A stretch of 64,000 nt of DNA from Escherichia coli (GCF_003018255.1 NZ_CP027440.1); one strand, 5' to 3'; shown: positions 13,412-53,049, numbered from the stretch's first letter. The notes: generated by a model from the sequence alone, not told the origin. A program made the numbers and translations.

Positions 13412-13488
<77 letters not shown>

Positions 13489-13545
13489 TTTAGTCCCGGC
13501 GCTTGAGCTGCGGTGGTAGTAATACCGCGTAACAAGATTTGTAGT

Positions 13546-13622
13546 GGTGGCTATAGCTCAGTTGGTAGAGCCCTGGATTGTGATTCCAGTTGTCGTGGGT
13601 TCGAATCCCATTAGCCACCCCA
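13546..13622 (+). tRNA. hisR: tRNA-His (anticodon GUG)
   Basis: GGUGGCUAUAGCUCAGUUGGUAGAGC with the extra 5' G typical of tRNA-His; anticodon loop AUUGUGAUU; GGUUCGAAUCC T-arm; CCA end. Confidence 0.9.
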
Positions 13623-13642
13623 TTATTAGAAGTTGTGACAAT

Positions 13643-13729
13643 GCGAAGGTGGCGGAATTGGTAGACGCGCTAGCTTCAGGTGTTAGTGTCCTTACGGACG
13701 TGGGGGTTCAAGTCCCCCCCCTCGCACCA
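13643..13729 (+). tRNA. leuT: tRNA-Leu (anticodon CAG), long variable arm
   Basis: GCGAAGGUGGCGGAAUUGGUAGACGC D-arm; anticodon loop CUUCAGGUG; long variable arm; GGUUCAAGUCC T-arm; CCA end. Confidence 0.9.
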
Positions 13730-13771
13730 CGACTTTAAAGAATTGAACTAAAAATTCAAAAAGCAGTATTT

Positions 13772-13848
13772 CGGCGAGTAGCGCAGCTTGGTAGCGCAAC
13801 TGGTTTGGGACCAGTGGGTCGGAGGTTCGAATCCTCTCTCGCCGACCA
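13772..13848 (+). tRNA. proM: tRNA-Pro (anticodon UGG)
   Basis: CGGCGAGUAGCGCAGCUUGGUAGCGC; anticodon loop UUUGGGA; GGUUCGAAUCC T-arm; CCA end. Confidence 0.9.
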
Positions 13849-13880: not shown

Positions 13881-13994
13881 TTTCTGTGCATTTCGTCACT
13901 TTCCCTTCGCAATAAACGCCCGTAATAACGCATTGCGCCACGGTATGATTTCGCCCTTAACTTATTGAAGGATGACTTCAGGCAAGGAGCGACC

Positions 13995-15230
13995 ATGCTG
14001 CAACAGGTTCCAACGCGTGCTTTTCATGTGATGGCGAAACCGAGCGGTTCCGATTGTAATCTGAACTGTGACTACTGTTTTTATCTCGAAAAACAATCCC
14101 TTTACCGCGAAAAGCCAGTCACGCATATGGACGATGACACGCTGGAAGCGTATGTCCGTCACTATATCGCTGCCAGCGAAACCCAAAACGAAGTGGCTTT
14201 TACCTGGCAGGGCGGCGAACCAACGTTACTCGGGCTGGATTTTTACCGCCGTGCCGTGGCGCTACAGGCGAAATATGGTGCTGGCAGGAAGATAAGTAAC
14301 AGCTTCCAGACTAACGGCGTGCTGCTTGATGACGAATGGTGTGCATTTCTGGCAGAAAATCATTTTCTTGTAGGGTTATCGCTGGATGGTCCGGCTGAGA
14401 TCCACAATCAATATCGCGTGACCAAAGGTGGCAGACCAACGCATAAGCTGGTGATGCGTGCTCTGACGCTCCTGCAAAAACATCATGTCGACTATAACGT
14501 GCTGGTCTGCGTCAATCGCACCAGTGCGTTACAACCTTTGCAAGTCTATGATTTTCTGTGTGATGCAGGTGTTGAGTTCATCCAGTTTATTCCGGTGGTC
14601 GAGCGCCTGGCTGATGAAACGGCTGCTCATGCTGGACTTAAGCTACATGCTCCCGGCGATATTCAGGGCGAACTGACGGAATGGTCGGTGTGCCCGCAAG
14701 AGTTCGGTGAGTTTCTGGTGGCGATTTTCGACCACTGGATTAAGCGCGACGTCGGCAAGGTTTTCGTAATGAATATCGAATGGGCGTTCGCCAATTTTGT
14801 CGGCGCACCGGGCGCGGTTTGCCATCATCAGCCAACCTGTGGGCGCTCGGTGATTGTTGAACACAACGGCGATGTTTACGCCTGCGATCACTATGTTTAT
14901 CCGCAGTATCGACTAGGGAATATGCTTCAGCAGACGATTGCAGAAATGATTGATTCCCCGCAACAGCAGGCATTTGGTGAAGATAAATTCAAGCAGTTAC
15001 CGGCACAGTGTCGCAGTTGCAACGTGTTAAAAGCGTGCTGGGGAGGCTGCCCGAAACACCGCTTTATGCTCGATGCCAGCGGCAAACCCGGGCTGAATTA
15101 TTTGTGTGCCGGGTATCAGCGTTATTTCCGCCATCTACCGCCATATCTTAAAGCAATGGCTGATTTGCTGGCGCACGGTCGTCCGGCCAGCGACATTATG
15201 CAGGCGCATTTGATGGTGGTGAATAAGTAG
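13995..15230 (+). CDS. aslB: anaerobic sulfatase-maturating enzyme (radical SAM)
   Basis: ORF track starts at 13965; ATG at 13995 (MLQQVPTRAFHV) gives a ~411 aa product; CxxxCxxC radical-SAM cluster motif CNLNCDYCFY and C-terminal Cys-rich SPASM region. Confidence 0.85.
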   Translation: MLQQVPTRAFHVMAKPSGSDCNLNCDYCFYLEKQSLYREKPVTHMDDDTLEAYVRHYIAASETQNEVAFTWQGGEPTLLGLDFYRRAVALQAKYGAGRKISNSFQTNGVLLDDEWCAFLAENHFLVGLSLDGPAEIHNQYRVTKGGRPTHKLVMRALTLLQKHHVDYNVLVCVNRTSALQPLQVYDFLCDAGVEFIQFIPVVERLADETAAHAGLKLHAPGDIQGELTEWSVCPQEFGEFLVAIFDHWIKRDVGKVFVMNIEWAFANFVGAPGAVCHHQPTCGRSVIVEHNGDVYACDHYVYPQYRLGNMLQQTIAEMIDSPQQQAFGEDKFKQLPAQCRSCNVLKACWGGCPKHRFMLDASGKPGLNYLCAGYQRYFRHLPPYLKAMADLLAHGRPASDIMQAHLMVVNK

Positions 15231-15256
15231 AAATCGGCGGCCGCCTGCGGTTGATT

Positions 15257-15359
15257 GCCGGATGCGGCGTGAACGCCTTATCCGGCCTACAATCATTGCA
15301 AATTCAATAAATTGCAGCGTTCTGTAGGCTGGATAAGATGCGTCAGCATCGCATCCGGC
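15257..15359. repeat. REP/BIME palindromic units (pair in inverted orientation)
   Basis: GCCGGATGCGGCGTGAACGCCTTATCCGGCCTAC and inverted partner GTAGGCTGGATAAGATGCGTCAGCATCGCATCCGGC in the aslB-aslA intergenic space. Confidence 0.8.
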
Positions 15360-15387
15360 AAAGGCAGATCTCAGCGATAGCGCCGGC

Positions 15388-17043
15388 TTAGTCAGATTTA
15401 ATCTGCGCGCGTGGTGGATATTTTTTCAGGATCTCCATATACGCGTGCATTTCGGTCTGTAGCGGTACACCCATCGGAATATGGCGCACGCCGATAGAGT
15501 CGCTTTCCTGCGGATCGGTGTACAGGTTAAACACCGACGATCCCGCCGTTTGCATTACTGTGCCGGTGAATCCACCCTGATATCCGCTCTGGGTATAAGC
15601 GTAAGGTTGCTGAATCAGGACGTGATACTTGAACTCATCCATACGCACAGCAGAAAGTTTACCGTTGAGGAAGTAGTGCTCGGCCTTACGGTTAGACTGA
15701 CCATTTGTTCCCAGGAAGAAAGATGTCTGGTCCACACCATCGATAAAGGTGGTTTTCGGTACTAAATTCGCTACTTTCGCCCCAGGATGCCCCGCCAGAT
15801 CCAGCGCCGTAGGGAAGAGATCCGCCAGATCGACAATGCCGTCAGATTTACGCGGTTGGATCATGCCTTTCCAGTAAACGAAGGTTGGCACACGAACGCC
15901 GCCTTCCCATGTAGAACCTTTCGCACCGCGGAACGGCGTGCGACCGTGCGGCGGAACTTCGGCTTCCGGACCGTTATCAGAGGTGAACACAATCAGCGTG
16001 TTATCAAGCTGACCGTTTTTCTCCAGTGCTTTATACAGATTGGCGAAGATATCGTTCATCTCCACCATGCAGTCGCCGTAAGAGGTGCGCGCCGGAGAGC
16101 TACCCGCATATTTGGCGTTCGGGTAGTTATCGAAGTGACAGCCGCGAGTGCCGTAATAGAGGAAGAAAGGCTTATCACTCTTCGCCATCTTGTCGAGGAA
16201 CTTAACGCCATATTCCATCCAGCGTTGATCCAGGTCTTCCATATATTTCGGCGTAATGTCGGCAATGGCTTCCTGTTCACCGCCGCGCACGGCATGAACG
16301 TCATCTTTGCTAAACGGCAGTTTTTGGATGTATTCAGAACGAGCCGGGCTCAGGGCGACTTCCGGGTTGACATGAACATCACGCCATTCGGTATACATAT
16401 CGGACACCGAGTTAAAGCCGCGGAAATCATCAAAGCCAACGTTCTGCGGCTGCGACTCTTTGTTTTCCCCCATATGCCATTTCCCGATGGCCTGGGTGAC
16501 GTAGCCCTGATCATGCAGCAACTGCGGCAGCGTGGTTAACCCTTGCAGACCGCCCGGTTGCCCGTACATTGGCGGCATCAGAATGCCGTGGTGGATGGAG
16601 TATTGTCCGGTAAGAATCGTGGCGCGGGTTGGGGAAGAACTCGGTTGAGAATACGCCGAAGTTAAAATCAGCCCCTGGCTGGCAACGGCGTCGATATCTG
16701 GTGTAGGGTTACCCACCGCCACGCCGCCGCCGTTAAAGCCAACATCCATCCAGCCCACATCATCCAGCAAGAAAACAACCACGTTCGGTTTCTTACCGGT
16801 TTTTTTCTCAAGTTCTGCCAGCTTCTGCTGGGTTTCTTTGTCTTGTGCAGGATGCTGCATCACCGGCATCATGTTGTCGGCAATAGTGGTCGCCGGTTTA
16901 ACCAGATACTGGTTTGGGTGATCGTATCCGGCAAAGCCTTTGCGTGCGGTGGCGGTTGACGGGGTATCTGCTGCGCTGGCTATGAGAGGAAGAGCTGCGG
17001 CGACAGCAACAACAAGAAGTTTGGGTGAAAACGAAAATTCCAT
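15388..17043 (-). CDS. aslA: arylsulfatase
   Basis: 551 aa; signal peptide; sulfatase signature with the formylglycine target motif [15 protein letters not shown] (C/S-x-P-x-R) and downstream GKWH motif. Confidence 0.9.
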
Positions 17044-17455
17044 GCAAAATGCTCCGGTTTCATGTCGTCAAAATGATGACGTAATTAAGCATTGATAATT
17101 GAGATCCCTCTCCCTGACAGGATGATTGCATAAATAATAGTGATAAAAATAAATTATTTATTTATCCAGAAAATGAATTGAAAAATCAGGAGAGCATTTT
17201 CAATCCTACCTCTGGCGCAGGTGATATGTAAGGCGGTGATGTTATATCGCTTTGATTATTGATGCTGTTTTTAGTTTTAACGGCAATTAATATATATGTT
17301 ATTAATTGAATGACTTTTATTATTCATTATATATATGTGTAGAATTGTGCGCAGGAGAAATATTCACTCAGGAAGTTATTACTCAGGAAGCAAAGAGGAT
17401 TACAGAATTATCTCATAACAAGTGTTAAGGGATGTTATTTCCCGGTTCTCTGTGG

Positions 17456-17461
17456 CATAAT
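17456..17461 (+). promoter_or_regulatory. -10 element (extended TG-n-CATAAT) of glmZ promoter
   Basis: TGGCATAAT located 7 nt upstream of the proposed sRNA 5' end. Confidence 0.45.
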
Positions 17462-17467
17462 AAACGA

Positions 17468-17675
17468 GTAGATGCTCATTCCATCTCTTATGTTCGCCTT
17501 AGTGCCTCATAAACTCCGGAATGACGCAGAGCCGTTTACGGTGCTTATCGTCCACTGACAGATGTCGCTTATGCCTCATCAGACACCATGGACACAACGT
17601 TGAGTGAAGCACCCACTTGTTGTCATACAGACCTGTTTTAACGCCTGCTCCGTAATAAGAGCAGGCGTTTTTTTA
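17468..17675 (+). ncRNA. glmZ: GlmZ small RNA (glmS activator)
   Basis: Sequence beginning GTAGATGCTCATTCCATCTCTTATGTTCGCC and ending in terminator hairpin GCCTGCTC-CGTAATAA-GAGCAGGC plus T7, matching the remembered GlmZ sequence and its aslA-hemY intergenic location. Confidence 0.65.
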
Positions 17676-17721
17676 TGTATCAGAAAGGTCCCGGAGGAGC
17701 TTGCCTCCGGGTGAGAAAGAG

Positions 17722-18918
17722 CTACTGTGGCGGGTTGTTCTGCAACGTTAACATCAAACCGTCGCGACGCATCGCTGCGGCTTCTTCCGGCTTGTGCAGT
17801 CTGTCCAGCGCGTCGGCAAGCCATGCGTAATCGTAGGCGTCCGGACGTTGTTTCAGCGCTGCGCGGAAGGCGAGCGATGCTTCCTGCCATTCTCCGTGTT
17901 TCATCAGCGACTGACCCAGTGTGCTCCACAACAGCGGGCGATCGCCCACGTTTTTGATCTGTTGGCGCAGCACTTTTTCCAGCTGTTCCGGGTTATTGGT
18001 TTTCAGACGCGGGATCGGCAGCAGCAGGCGATCGTCATACTGGCGTTTCAGGCCATCGATGATAATTTGCTGGGCAGTATCATGATCGTCACACTCAATA
18101 AGATGTTCCGCCATTGCCACCTGCAAGGCCACCTGATGACGCGTTTTCCGGCTTTGGTTTTTCCACCAGTTACGCAAACCTTCACTACCGTTATCGGCAC
18201 GCGCCTGATCCATCAGGCCAATCCATGCCTGTTGTTCCAGCATTGCACGATGTTCTTCATCACCAACATGGGCTTTCGCCATTGATGGGATGATATCCAG
18301 CAGCGAACTCCATGCACCAGTGCGGATATACGCCTGTTCCGCCAGACGTAATACTTCCGGATGGCGTGGCGTAACTTCCAGCAGCTTATCCACGCCGTGA
18401 CGTGCTGCATGGTTTTCATTACGGGCCAGTTGCAGACGTACACGGGTGATTTCTACCGGAATGGTGTCATTGCCGGCCAGCTCCGCTGCGCGTTCCAGAT
18501 GTTGGTTGGCGCGTGCTTCATCACCACGTTGTTGCGCGGCTTCGGCTGCCAGTAGATAGTTCACCACCGGTTGTTCAGCGTGATCGGCATTTTTCGCCAT
18601 CAGCTTTTCAACTTGCTGATAATCGCCTTCCGCCAGTTTCAGCAGCGCCTGTTCGGTCTGCTTACGTGCACGGCGACGCTTACGTCCGACAAACCACCCA
18701 CGGGTGTGCGCGCCTGTGCGGAAGATTCGCCGCAGTAGCCACTCAATGGCAAACAGCACTACCATCGCCAGAATCAAAATAATCGCGAGGCCCGTGACGC
18801 TAGTTTCAATATTGTAGTTGTCGGTCTGGATCAGCACGTAACCCTGATGGCCGGCAATCATCGGGCCAACCACGATCCCCGCAATCAGCAACACAAAGAG
18901 CAATAACACTTTTAGCAT
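17722..18918 (-). CDS. hemY: protoheme IX biogenesis protein HemY (TPR membrane protein)
   Basis: 398 aa; two N-terminal TM helices followed by TPR-like repeats; hemCDXY operon synteny. Confidence 0.85.
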   Translation of the reverse strand: MLKVLLLFVLLIAGIVVGPMIAGHQGYVLIQTDNYNIETSVTGLAIILILAMVVLFAIEWLLRRIFRTGAHTRGWFVGRKRRRARKQTEQALLKLAEGDYQQVEKLMAKNADHAEQPVVNYLLAAEAAQQRGDEARANQHLERAAELAGNDTIPVEITRVRLQLARNENHAARHGVDKLLEVTPRHPEVLRLAEQAYIRTGAWSSLLDIIPSMAKAHVGDEEHRAMLEQQAWIGLMDQARADNGSEGLRNWWKNQSRKTRHQVALQVAMAEHLIECDDHDTAQQIIIDGLKRQYDDRLLLPIPRLKTNNPEQLEKVLRQQIKNVGDRPLLWSTLGQSLMKHGEWQEASLAFRAALKQRPDAYDYAWLADALDRLHKPEEAAAMRRDGLMLTLQNNPPQ

Positions 18919-37222: not shown

Positions 37223-37720
37223 TTATTGCTGAAAATTGTCTTTTTCAAAGTCATGCGGGTTGAACACTCGCTCTATCTTATTTTCCTGGGTTAGTTGATA
37301 CTCATTGTTATCAGCAATAAAAAAATGAGTATTACGGTAAGGATATTCATTAATAACCATTAAATAGTTTTTTACGATGCAATTATCATTGCTCTTAATC
37401 GTCGGGAAACAGTAGAGATCTTCATACGGCCCTTCGATATATTTTTTATAGTCAGTGAAGCCATTACCGATATCAATAACATACCAGGTATGCCAACTAC
37501 CTTCTGGTAGGGGATGTTGATTTTTAATTTCATTCTGACGCTTCAGATACCAATTTATTTTATCGCTGTCAGTCCATGGCAGATGATCAACGACCAGAAA
37601 GACTGAATTGCCAGCATCAGAGTATGTATACAAAATCTGTACAGGACGCAATGTCCATAAATTATAGATGCAGCATAGAAGAAATAAACATAATATAATT
37701 TTCTGGAGTTTGCTTTTCAT
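37223..37720 (-). CDS. DUF943-like small membrane protein (accessory, possible immunity-like partner)
   Basis: 165 aa, AT-rich codon usage; N-terminal TM helix (IILCLFLLCCIYNLW); start overlaps upstream gene stop (ATGA-type coupling at 37717-37720). Confidence 0.45.
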   Translation of the reverse strand: MKSKLQKIILCLFLLCCIYNLWTLRPVQILYTYSDAGNSVFLVVDHLPWTDSDKINWYLKRQNEIKNQHPLPEGSWHTWYVIDIGNGFTDYKKYIEGPYEDLYCFPTIKSNDNCIVKNYLMVINEYPYRNTHFFIADNNEYQLTQENKIERVFNPHDFEKDNFQQ

Positions 37721-38565
37721 AGATAATTTTCGATTCTTTCTATAGTGTTAAAATTGGTGAAAAAAGGTTTGAAAGCAAAGTCTTTATGCCGTTGTAAAAA
37801 GAACCATATGCGAAAAAATCTATATTTGCTATAAGTCTTGTTTTTGATATCAGTTACATCAAGACCGAAGTGGTCCTGTGCTACAAAATGAATTGTTGCA
37901 CTCCATCCTATAGCGTATTTTTGAAAACTTAAAAGAGATATTTTTTGAGCTGAAATATCATGAACACTGATTCCTAAGCCATTAAAACTGTCCTCGAAGT
38001 CATTAAATTTATTTAGTCTTGATGAAAGTAATTCGGTCTTAATCTTTTGTAGGAGAAGAGGCCGGTATCCTATCGTAGGTGTTGAAGAAATATCATTTTC
38101 GATACATTCTTTGATTACACGTATTGGGCTATTATAATCATATTTGTTTATTCGTTCATGAAAAGATAAGTTCAATTCCTGGCTATGGAAACTGTTGCCA
38201 TTTCCATATCTAAAATGATCAATCAGATCCTGGATGAGTGTTTTGTATTGTCCAAAAAAGGAAAACATTTTTGCCAGATCTTTCATTTCTGCAAATAAAA
38301 TATCAATACATTCACTTTGTGATATTTTTGTTCCAGAAGTTGGAACACTAAAAGCACCATAAGTAGAATTCGGCCCAGGAAAATGGTATTTAATGAGGCG
38401 GTAAGGATCAACTTTTGCAGAGATGTCGCTCAAGCCGAGTGAGAGAAAATCTTGTTCTTCCATATCCCCATATTGCATATCATCAGCAGAAAAATCATCG
38501 AATAAAGTAATAGTTTCGAAAAGTGTACAGGGCATATTAATTGATGAGCCTAATATGTTGTTCAT
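37717..38565 (-). CDS. DUF3289-like protein (accessory, function unknown)
   Basis: 282 aa, AT-rich; no signal peptide; sizes and sequence do not fit the K-12 yigF/yigG pair (~126 aa each, from memory) that occupies this corA-rarD slot; family assignment tentative. Confidence 0.45.
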   Translation of the reverse strand: MNNILGSSINMPCTLFETITLFDDFSADDMQYGDMEEQDFLSLGLSDISAKVDPYRLIKYHFPGPNSTYGAFSVPTSGTKISQSECIDILFAEMKDLAKMFSFFGQYKTLIQDLIDHFRYGNGNSFHSQELNLSFHERINKYDYNSPIRVIKECIENDISSTPTIGYRPLLLQKIKTELLSSRLNKFNDFEDSFNGLGISVHDISAQKISLLSFQKYAIGWSATIHFVAQDHFGLDVTDIKNKTYSKYRFFRIWFFLQRHKDFAFKPFFTNFNTIERIENYL

Positions 38566-50782: not shown

Positions 50783-50818
50783 TGAGTATTAACGAGTCAT
50801 TGTAAATTGCAGTACGAT

Positions 50819-50846
50819 AATGGCTTCCAGTACTGGAAGCCATTTT
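50819..50846 (+). terminator. Rho-independent terminator after metE
   Basis: Hairpin AATGGCTTCCAG-TACT-GGAAGCCATT followed by TTTG. Confidence 0.7.
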
Positions 50847-50950
50847 GCATGAGTGCCAGATTGAAGCAGATCTTCAGGAGTAGAAATAACCGAATCGTTT
50901 TTTTCGCAAAACACAGTTTTGAGTGATTCCGTTCAGTAATCAACGCTACG

Positions 50951-51211
50951 TTATTTATTCTCACGTTGCACGAGATTGTATCCCTTTTCACTAACGTGGT
51001 AGTGAGGCATAGACTTATGCCCGCTATCCTCAATAATAACCAAACCTTCGTTAGCTAATTTGTTAACAATATTAACAATATTACCGAATCCTGGTATTTG
51101 CCTTATGGATAGTGTGCGATCGAGATTCATCCAGTTCCAGTTTATATCTTTCTCAGTCATAACGTTCAGCACGTTAAGTTCATTTTTAGTGATCACGATA
51201 TTCTGTACCAA
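50951..51211 (-). CDS. second paralog of putative immunity protein (possible orphan immunity)
   Basis: 86 aa; clearly paralogous to the 51271-51528 product (shared IVxxNxLxVMxEKDIxWxWMxLDRTLxIRxIPGFGNxxNIVxKLxNxGLVxI pattern); AT-rich. Confidence 0.55.
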   Translation of the reverse strand: MVQNIVITKNELNVLNVMTEKDINWNWMNLDRTLSIRQIPGFGNIVNIVNKLANEGLVIIEDSGHKSMPHYHVSEKGYNLVQRENK

Positions 51212-51270
51212 AATTGATGAGTATCTTATTGAAAGATCACAATGTAAATCATGCTCCTGTAATGGCTGGA

Positions 51271-51528
51271 TCAGAAGAGGTTGTCTTGTTGTTCTTTGAT
51301 AAGATTCAATCCATATTGAGAAACTCTGTAGCGTGGTTTAGAGTTGCCCTCACCATTTACGATATCAACCAACCCATGATTAACCAGCTTTGTTACGATA
51401 TTCGCTACGTTGCCAAATCCTGGAATATTTCGTATAGCTAAAGTACGATCCAGCACCATCCAGCTCCAGTCAATATCTTTCTCAGCCATAACTTTCAGCA
51501 CGTTAAATTCAACTATCGTAATCGTCAT
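51271..51528 (-). CDS. putative cognate immunity protein of the Hcp-fusion effector
   Basis: 85 aa; start codon overlaps the stop of the upstream Hcp-fusion gene (ATGA at 51525-51528), the arrangement typical of effector-immunity pairs. Confidence 0.55.
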   Translation of the reverse strand: MTITIVEFNVLKVMAEKDIDWSWMVLDRTLAIRNIPGFGNVANIVTKLVNHGLVDIVNGEGNSKPRYRVSQYGLNLIKEQQDNLF

Positions 51529-52658
51529 TTTTTTGCATCCGGATGAAATAAGTCAGTATCTTTAATTTTAAAGTCTTCTAGAGTTGCAGTATGTACATTA
51601 TTCCATAATTCATATCCATCTAAACCTTTCGGTTCACCTGTTTCCCATCCTAAATTACAATAACGCTGATACTCGCGACATTCATGAGTATAGTAGTTCA
51701 GATCGTATTTTTCAGGAAGCAATTCTTTATTTGCTATTTTCTTTAGCCTTGAAATCATTACATCATTAGCTGGATCATGATCAAATCTGGAGATATGCTT
51801 TTCAACAATAGCGATACCTTCCCTGTTGATTGTTACGCCATCTATCGTCAGGTTTTCAATTGGACCACCGGCAAGGTCGGGATTAAATGGTCTTCCTGAT
51901 ACTGCTCCTCTGGCTCCGAAATGCTCAAGTGATTCCAAATCAGGGAATCTCATTCTTCCCAGAACAACTCCAGCAACTATTGAAGCACCAGCGATGAGTA
52001 ACCCTTTGTTATCCATAACTTGATCGTAACCAGCAGGTGCATCTCCTCCCAACTTGTTTGCTGTTTCCCTGAATCCTTCGATATTCCCATTGTATATGCC
52101 GCCAGCAGCAAGCAGTCTGCCAACCGCTTTACTATTGAGTGTTTTGAGGCCATTATCATCTTTAGTTTTTGGCCGTGGTATAAACAGACGGTTGTAGTTA
52201 TCGGGAAATGCCAAATAACTAAATTCAGTATTAGCAATCAGATGCCTGGAGAGTATATATTCATAACTGGCAGTGATGGTTTCTGTATCCAGATTGTTCT
52301 CAGTAAACAGGTGATTGATTGCTGATAAGAGCGCGCCGCGGAGTTGAATGTTGTAATATTTCTCCCATCGACCAAATCTATTGATCCGATAGAAGTCAAA
52401 CTCCATGAACAACTGCTCGTTATTGTTAATAGCGTTAATAAGTAACGGGGAGCTTTTGTCAATCAACTTACAGAAACTAAGGCCATGTAATTGTGACCCT
52501 TTGCCTGTATTCGTAATACTATTAGATAGCGAGAACGCGAAGATTTCATCTTCATGGCCAATCTGCCAGCGATTACCTATTGATGCGCTCGTTCCGCAAC
52601 GAGAGGAAATACATCCTTGTTGTTCTCCGGTTATGGTCAGGTAAATAATATCACTCAT
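51525..52658 (-). CDS. Hcp-domain protein with C-terminal extension (candidate T6SS Hcp-effector fusion, Hcp-ET-like)
   Basis: 377 aa; N-terminal ~165 aa match the Hcp tube-protein signature (YLTITGEQQG...DEIFAFSLSNSITNTGKGS...LSFCKLIDKSSPLLINA; compare Hcp FIKIGDVKGES...IDVLAWSWG...LSFTKYIDKSTPNL); ~210 aa C-terminal extension of unrecognised fold; AT-rich. Confidence 0.7.
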   Translation of the reverse strand: MSDIIYLTITGEQQGCISSRCGTSASIGNRWQIGHEDEIFAFSLSNSITNTGKGSQLHGLSFCKLIDKSSPLLINAINNNEQLFMEFDFYRINRFGRWEKYYNIQLRGALLSAINHLFTENNLDTETITASYEYILSRHLIANTEFSYLAFPDNYNRLFIPRPKTKDDNGLKTLNSKAVGRLLAAGGIYNGNIEGFRETANKLGGDAPAGYDQVMDNKGLLIAGASIVAGVVLGRMRFPDLESLEHFGARGAVSGRPFNPDLAGGPIENLTIDGVTINREGIAIVEKHISRFDHDPANDVMISRLKKIANKELLPEKYDLNYYTHECREYQRYCNLGWETGEPKGLDGYELWNNVHTATLEDFKIKDTDLFHPDAKK

Positions 52659-53049
52659 CCTTGAAAAACCTTTTGTTAATTCTTTTGTGAAAGAAAAATA
52701 GTATTGTTATTTTTTACCTTTATTTACGCCCAAAAGGGATGAACTAAAATGTGAAAAACAAAATGTTTCACTTTAATATCTTTTTATCAGGAAGGTCTGA
52801 GATAATTTATAATTAATGTGAATGTGTTGATAATAATTAATGTTTGTTTGAGAATGGGAGTTGATGGTAAATCTCTAAGGTGTCTGCCAGTGAAGAGACT
52901 CATTTATGACTATGACTTGCCGACTTTCTTAAGGTCAAATAGCGGAGTCGTGCTCTCCAATCAATTCATACTGATTATTTTTTGGGGGACAGAGATGGCA
53001 GCAAAATGCACTCGTTCACTCACCATCTCAAATATAGACTAAGAGGAAA

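Follow-up and report, generated by a model that had tools for sequence, protein, structure and literature searches.

The small RNA GlmZ acts on cell-envelope precursor synthesis via glmS, and the gene aslA has been associated with invasion by Escherichia coli K1. The glmZ promoter of E. coli K-12 has been dissected: a fragment from -40 to +32 is fully active, a truncation to -20 is inactive, and point mutations of the -35 and -10 elements abolish promoter activity (Gopel et al., 2011; PMC3045617). Expression of K-12 glmZ is independent of glrR and rpoN, GlrR does not bind a fragment from -424 to +32 (negative EMSA), and the IHF-like sites found upstream of other glmY/glmZ genes are missing in Escherichia glmZ (Gopel et al., 2011; PMC3045617). 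The K-12 spacer between aslA and glmZ has been assigned to those divergent spacers that bind the RpoD holoenzyme alone, and it is listed with an H-NS site from genomic SELEX (Table 1, row 'aslA < HNS > glmZ', in Shimada et al., 2014; PMC3946193). In published work the spacer also serves as a neutral integration site for reporter constructs.

Spacer, glmZ promoter and in vitro H-NS binding have thus been published already, and the feature is an ordinary one. Here we describe the spacer of a further E. coli strain (GCF_003018255.1, NZ_CP027440.1) within a stretch of 64,000 nucleotides, referred to as the window, and compare the locus with the glmZ loci of other Enterobacterales.

Results

The aslA-glmZ spacer and its surroundings

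The spacer comprises positions 17044-17467 of the window (424 bp), precisely as delimited in the initial annotation. Features of the locus are collected in Table 1. The start codon of aslA is 17043-17041 on the minus strand; the amino terminus of AslA resembles a signal peptide, and the gene is 98% identical to its PGAP-annotated counterpart in K-12. For aslB, the mechanical open reading frame begins with the TTG at 13965; judged by the 411-residue RefSeq protein, translation would start about 30 nt further downstream. REP-like palindromic elements occupy the convergent aslB/aslA gap (15199-15387), which also gives sub-threshold Rfam matches to naRNA4 (41 bits; gathering score 59.5) and ES036.

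Table 1. Features of the aslB-aslA-glmZ locus, in coordinates of the window.
Feature	Position	Strand	Evidence or remark
argX-hisR-leuT-proM tRNA operon	13412-13848		tRNA calls (ARAGORN)
tRNA-Pro (proM), final gene of the operon	13772-13848	+	ARAGORN
Left end of the Escherichia-specific segment	13886-13910 (approx.)		Pairwise and MAFFT alignments
aslB, anaerobic sulfatase maturase (radical SAM + SPASM)	13965-15230	+	Pfam, RefSeq annotation
aslA, arylsulfatase family	15388-17043	-	ORF list; Pfam PF00884 at 4e-71; PGAP
Invariant block	17038-17064		Ribosome-binding region
GGAG Shine-Dalgarno sequence of aslA	17052-17055	-	8 nt before ATG; read from sequence
Dyad GTCGTCA-AAA-TGATGAC	17064-17080		21-37 nt upstream of aslA ATG
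Invariant blocks	17146-17167 (palindrome), 17197-17215, 17252-17266
Imperfect inverted repeat	17166-17215		19-nt arms, 74% complementary, 12-nt loop
Conserved block TTATATCGC.TTGATTATTGATGCTGTTTTTAGTTT	17243-17280		Includes 17252-17266
Two TATATATG runs	17291-17298, 17330-17337		Inside an imperfect direct and inverted repeat (17291-17337)
15-bp tandem duplication ACTCAGGAAGTTATT / ACTCAGGAAGCAAAG	17366-17395		73-102 nt upstream of glmZ
Predicted aslA promoter TTAACA-18-TGTAAT	17428-17399	-	Computational (Shimada et al., 2014; PMC3946193); located by eye
glmZ sigma70 promoter	17432-17461	+	Alignment to the dissected K-12 promoter
Right homology breakpoint	17449-17450		Homology to glmZ promoters of other genera from ~-18 (CTGTGGCATAATAAACGA) onward
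glmZ small RNA including intrinsic terminator	17468-17674	+	Rfam RF00083, 218 bits, full length; terminator scan
hemY	17722-18918	-

The arrangement is nearly universal in the species. An 801-bp query across the spacer (16900-17700) found a match in 5425 of 5426 complete E. coli genomes; the spacer alone was matched in 5423 of them, with at least 80% of its length in 5407. The allele of the window is 99.8% identical to those of the type strain ATCC 11775 and of Nissle 1917, which identifies it as a phylogroup-B2 type; its identity to K-12 is 93.9%.

Three strains carry disruptions. In NT1F10 an IS1 element lies within the matched region, PSS-16 keeps glmZ and, of the spacer, just the final ~50 bp, and in AR_0019 aslA is a truncated pseudogene. 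These cases indicate that E. coli can do without aslA and the greater part of the spacer, and that the promoter-proximal part of glmZ is kept. On the other side of the small RNA, strain U13A has an extra 591-bp open reading frame ('hypothetical protein') directly after the glmZ terminator and before hemY (2274-2864 of the U13A locus). It is present in some E. coli strains only and is missing in the window strain and in K-12.

Base composition and nucleoid-protein sites

The claim that the ~420 bp upstream of aslA are strongly AT-rich holds. The GC content of the spacer is 0.328 (32.8%) compared with 0.514 for the whole window; only 1.2% of all 424-bp segments are that low. Of 20 non-coding gaps measuring 100 bp or more, it shares the second-lowest rank. 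The density of TpA steps is 2.2-fold that of the window. An A+T content well above average over at least 100 bp, as expected of an H-NS-bound region, is thus present. The TATATATG runs are present as well, at 17291 and 17330, and both are polymorphic between phylogroups, reading TATATGTG and TAAGTATG in K-12-type strains.

The region had further been proposed as a target of H-NS, Fis and IHF. For H-NS this agrees with the published in vitro SELEX data from K-12, whereas motifs for Fis and IHF are not enriched. The high-affinity H-NS motif is reportedly TCGATAAATT-like, as derived by Lang and co-workers in 2007. One 8/10 match to it lies at 17159-17168 and abuts the palindrome described below. 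The loose form of the motif gave seven matches in the spacer versus 4.1 expected (P = 0.12) and is not enriched. For the IHF consensus WATCAANNNNTTR the spacer contains no perfect match and four with one mismatch versus 1.6 expected (P = 0.09); two near-matches within the palindrome lack the core C. For the Fis consensus GNNNAWWWWWTNNNC there were no perfect matches and eight with one mismatch versus 7.4 expected, and no CRP site was found in the spacer beyond the compositional expectation.

DNA curvature, suggested in the initial annotation as a check, lent no support: in a wedge model, which is a weak test, the spacer averaged 11.1 degrees versus a mean of 10.5 for the window, and 30% of 424-bp segments were at least as curved. 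As consensus motifs are not enriched and TpA steps are 2.2-fold overrepresented, H-NS binding is best attributed to bulk AT-richness. A text search of the literature returned no report of in vivo H-NS occupancy or of aslA expression in an hns mutant.

Two other AT-rich stretches of the window may be recorded here. A pair of genes for DUF943 (165 aa) and DUF3289 (282 aa) proteins is located at 37223-38565 on the minus strand, between corA and a gene for an EamA-family transporter. This islet (~30% GC) has the lowest GC content in the window, and near-matches to the H-NS consensus cluster in it. At 51525-52658, also on the minus strand, a 377-residue protein is encoded with an Hcp (type VI secretion) domain at its amino terminus and a carboxy-terminal extension; its reading frame lies within a stretch of 33-38% GC (50783-53049), downstream of a 753-aa open reading frame.

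Conserved and variable parts of the spacer

The palindrome AAATAAAT-T-ATTTATTT is located exactly where the initial annotation had placed it (17147-17154 / 17155 / 17156-17163). Its 8-nt arms are perfect and extend no further. Of dinucleotide-preserving shuffles of the spacer, 5.2% contained a palindrome whose arms reached 8 nt or more; in DNA this rich in A+T the palindrome alone thus exceeds chance only marginally. When 10 diverse E. coli and E. albertii are aligned (11 sequences), it sits in a 22-nt invariant block, around which 13 of 40 flanking columns are variable; spacer-wide, 27% of the columns vary. At this divergence chance alone would give about 0.1 invariant runs of 22 nt or longer, and several shorter runs were also seen. 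The palindrome is not present in the aslA leaders of Pseudocitrobacter and Kluyvera.

The conserved block at 17243-17280 is still recognisable in the aslA-glmZ spacer of Pseudocitrobacter, which is otherwise unalignable, and this makes it a candidate control element of aslA. In the imperfect inverted repeat it is the right arm (17197-17215) that is invariant in Escherichia. The dyad close to the aslA start varies among E. coli strains at three symmetric arm positions (17067, 17068 and 17076). In E. albertii both of its arms carry a compensatory change, and the dyad is perfectly palindromic (GACATCAA-A-TTGATGTC). The dyad folds as a small hairpin in the aslA-sense strand and might represent an operator, a hairpin of the mRNA or the outcome of quasi-palindrome template-switch mutation.

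Substitutions relative to K-12 cluster in two variable patches (17235-17241 and 17328-17357) and spare the promoter hexamers and the palindrome. Length variation occurs too: strains of the HKUOPY1 and BL21 types have a 7-bp duplication in the spacer, and one copy of the 15-bp tandem duplication is precisely missing in strain E22, this repeat not being kept in E. albertii. Overall, the spacer is 81% identical to that of E. albertii, and the 5' part of glmZ is variable at just 3-5% of the columns.

Promoters of glmZ and aslA

The initial annotation had placed the glmZ promoter within the AT-rich region. It does lie there, confined to the last ~40 bp. By our own reading its hexamers are ATGTTA (-35, 17432-17437) and CATAAT (-10, 17456-17461), with a TG at 17453-17454. 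The -10 element, 7 nt before the G start, and the weak -35 are those of an Escherichia-type sigma70 promoter. Alignment with K-12 shows a single difference in the promoter, at 17445 between the hexamers, and this is also the one position that differs in the last 107 bp before glmZ. The promoter needs no sequence upstream of -40, and the AT-rich DNA has no bearing on glmZ.

A computed 'glmZ promoter', TTGAGA-17-GATGAT (Shimada et al., 2014; PMC3946193), corresponds to 17099-17126 of the window; we reject it as a functional glmZ promoter since it lies ~340 bp upstream of the mapped start. A consensus scan for sigma70 promoters in the spacer gave two plus-strand matches, no more than in shuffles, and missed the real glmZ promoter.

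The predicted aslA promoter (Table 1) has a degenerate -10 element in E. albertii, TGCAAC. With an aslA probe on naked DNA, the sigma70 holoenzyme transcribes 2.5-fold better than the sigmaS holoenzyme, as read from the position of aslA in Table 2 of the study (Maciag et al., 2011). In a K1 strain aslA mRNA is, according to published data, detectable and changes ~3-fold with RpoE and LL-37, an indirect effect; a detectable and responsive mRNA means that aslA is not fully silent. The papers found do not mention a regulator of aslA by name.

Comparison of glmZ loci among Enterobacterales

A pattern scan of species-representative genomes, in a sample that leaves out Klebsiella, Salmonella and other Escherichia species, yielded at least 41 Enterobacterales glmZ loci. 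Forty of these had usable upstream sequence, which together with K-12 gave 41 genomes. Klebsiella glmZ, too, reportedly has a sigma70 promoter only. Among the matches listed, 37 loci have no aslA linkage, and the following counts refer to these. TGGCA(C/T) is kept at -24 in all but two (the Yersinia element, one of the 37, was read from a partial view), and 35 of the 37 show the promoter form TGGCA(C/T)-N5-(G/A)TGCAATAAT. Most have perfect GlrR sites, and their upstream GC content is mostly 0.4-0.5. In 26 of the 37, a tRNA-Pro gene ends 145-816 bp upstream of glmZ (1.2 kb examined).

AslA is encoded upstream of glmZ in four genomes among the matches listed: E. coli, E. albertii, Kluyvera genomosp. 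1 and Pseudocitrobacter faecalis. Their spacers are ~400-425 bp long, with a GC content of 0.26-0.34 from -19 to -300, and none of the four has a -24 element or a perfect GlrR site upstream of glmZ. A sigma54/GlrR-dependent glmZ promoter of the ancestral type would show TGGCAC at -24, TGC at -12 and GlrR sites 100-250 bp upstream. In the window the -24 position reads CCCGGT, not TGGCAC, and a search of the spacer for the GlrR site TGTCN10GACA with up to two mismatches gave no match versus 2.3 expected. Remnants of GlrR, sigma54 or IHF sites were considered for the spacer and discarded: none were found, and the published EMSA with GlrR and K-12 DNA was negative.

At -24, Citrobacter youngae has CCGCAT and Pluralibacter gergoviae TGGCGT instead of TGGCAC, with proM still adjoining glmZ. 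Degeneration of the -24 element in these two species, with no insertion, indicates that the sigma54 promoter also decays by point mutation.

The genes aslB and aslA stand between proM and glmZ in E. coli and E. albertii; in 26 other genomes among the matches listed these flanks adjoin. On the left, homology to the proM-glmZ spacers of other genera (Citrobacter, Enterobacter and others) fades ~40-60 nt after proM, just past the terminator. On the right, there is no detectable homology to the glmZ promoters of other genera upstream of -18. The left flank (aslB, proM) was compared in Escherichia, as the Kluyvera and Pseudocitrobacter sequences end at aslA. In a crude test of segment identity, a junction shared with Kluyvera was supported at P = 0.02, and the result for Pseudocitrobacter was not significant. 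The Pseudocitrobacter spacer is alignable only at a short GGGATG.T.TTT patch and at the central block.

The only open reading frames of at least 100 residues in the 3.55-kb segment are aslB and aslA, and hence it contains no integrase or transposase. No flanking direct repeats were found at the ends of the cassette; the sole shared 8-mer, AATAAACG, was judged a chance match and not a target-site duplication. The coding GC content of aslA and aslB is ordinary (~0.52), which makes the cassette unlike recently acquired foreign DNA.

Discussion

With a probability of about 0.6, we consider the spacer to be an AT-rich leader of aslA that arrived together with aslB and aslA and acts as an H-NS platform lowering aslA expression, its last ~40 bp being the glmZ promoter. 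Positions ~17044-17449 would form the regulatory leader, which may have entered the locus with aslB-aslA in the ~3.55-kb segment inserted between proM and glmZ. The A+T content of 67% and the TpA-richness point to the spacer as a binding platform for H-NS. Most likely H-NS spreads over the spacer and, we infer, silences aslA by keeping its sigma70 promoter(s) low, promoters which would be usable on naked DNA. The conserved A/T palindrome is possibly a preferred H-NS patch within the AT-rich spacer; most plausibly it would be one site of contact or nucleation.

The last ~40 bp would constitute the constitutive sigma70 promoter of glmZ. Its -10 element may be the surviving -12/-10 part of an ancestral sigma54/sigma70 promoter, and its -35 element would lie within inserted DNA. 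With the aslA cassette in place of the proM-adjacent sigma54 promoter, E. coli glmZ is left with only the sigma70 promoter. That one structural event made this promoter seems to us more probable than gradual decay. The cassette would have cut the ancestral promoter between -24 and -12, stripped it of its upstream activating sites for GlrR and IHF, and brought in a new -35 element; the junction would then have spread to, or been inherited by, the Kluyvera and Pseudocitrobacter lineages.

Other readings of the spacer have to be weighed against this. The palindrome, maybe together with 17197-17215 and 17243-17280, could be the operator of a specific transcription factor activating aslA rather than a generic nucleoid-protein site, a LysR-type regulator of sulfur scavenging being one possibility. 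Perfect dyad symmetry would suit such an operator, as would a 22-nt block that stays invariant amid variable positions in 11 Escherichia sequences; the conservation of the spacer is patchy, as discrete sites would give, and one block is common to Pseudocitrobacter. We nevertheless regard the idea as unlikely, since the aslA leaders of Pseudocitrobacter and Kluyvera are devoid of the palindrome and arms of 8 nt turn up in 5% of AT-rich shuffles. The invariance itself has to be read against a chance expectation of ~0.1 runs of at least 22 nt and the existence of several shorter ones. Moreover, the consensus sequences for CRP, IHF, Fis and GlrR fit poorly, and the literature found names no aslA regulator.

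A lack of any dedicated function appears rather improbable. The spacer would then be weakly constrained DNA drifting towards A+T, with the palindrome and the TATATATG runs as low-complexity by-products. Binding of H-NS and RNA polymerase holoenzyme in vitro (published) is at odds with drift, and so are several invariant blocks of 15-27 nt within a variable spacer that is similarly long and AT-rich in all three genera with aslA at this place. What drift would explain is the fast evolution of the spacer (93.9% identity to K-12 and 81% to E. albertii, with 3-5% variation in 5' glmZ), the slippage indels (the 7-bp duplication and the 15-bp repeat deletion) and the polymorphic TATATATG runs; it would also fit the lack of motif enrichment, of exceptional curvature and of an RNA structure signal (z = -0.99). 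Very improbable, finally, is a product encoded by the spacer itself, be it a structured 5' UTR or riboswitch of aslA, a small RNA, or a small protein or leader peptide. The MFE and centroid structures both show the inverted repeat at 17166-17215 folded, and the aslA leader would be ~350 nt long if the predicted promoter is real. We rejected a structured RNA or riboswitch because no Rfam family matches the spacer at E <= 1 and the aslA-sense folding energy cannot be told apart from that of shuffles, with the z-score just given. Two small open reading frames are at hand, one of 23 residues (17131-17060, minus strand) that ends next to the aslA ribosome-binding region and one of 40 residues (17306-17428, plus strand). 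These too were dismissed, as natural indels break them or they lie within hypervariable DNA: the 7-bp duplication of HKUOPY1- and BL21-type strains would shift the frame of the former, and the latter runs through the segment with the most polymorphism and across the 15-bp indel.

A few short invariant blocks, including the palindrome, are the places to look for regulation of aslA. The comparison of loci would give a structural reason for the loss of sigma54/GlrR control of GlmZ in Escherichia, and the locus would be an example of a gene insertion that rewires the promoter of a neighbouring small RNA. The proposed insertion and rewiring make a small, plausible addition to published knowledge.

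Among known systems, tRNA-adjacent genomic islets resemble the aslB-aslA segment in that it, too, lies directly downstream of a tRNA operon, is missing there in most related genera sampled and has an AT-rich, H-NS-binding control region. Unlike such islets it has no integrase or transposase, no direct repeats and an ordinary coding GC content, and it is near-universal in E. coli. The H-NS-bound 'type-A' divergent spacers of E. coli (stpA/alaE, fepA/fes and csgD/csgB; PMC3946193) likewise bind the RpoD holoenzyme alone and contain an H-NS SELEX site, and like them the aslA-glmZ spacer is strongly AT-rich and TpA-rich. It differs from them in that it lacks a strong match to the high-affinity motif of H-NS and is not predicted to be markedly curved, in that we infer the silencing of aslA, and in that one flanking promoter, that of glmZ, is constitutive despite the adjacent AT-rich DNA.

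In contrast to the sigma54/GlrR/IHF-dependent glmY/glmZ promoters, E. coli glmZ is devoid of the TGGCAC element at -24, of TGTCN10GACA and of IHF sites. Yet its -18 to -1 region (CTGTGGCATAATAAACGA) and the -12/-10 part of these promoters, GTGCAATAAT, share homology, and transcription begins at the same G. A further close system is the aslA-glmZ region of K-12 (Gopel et al., 2011; PMC3045617), with the same locus, length, architecture, transcription start, -10 element and -35 region; the window represents a B2-type allele of it, with a spacer 93.9% identical.
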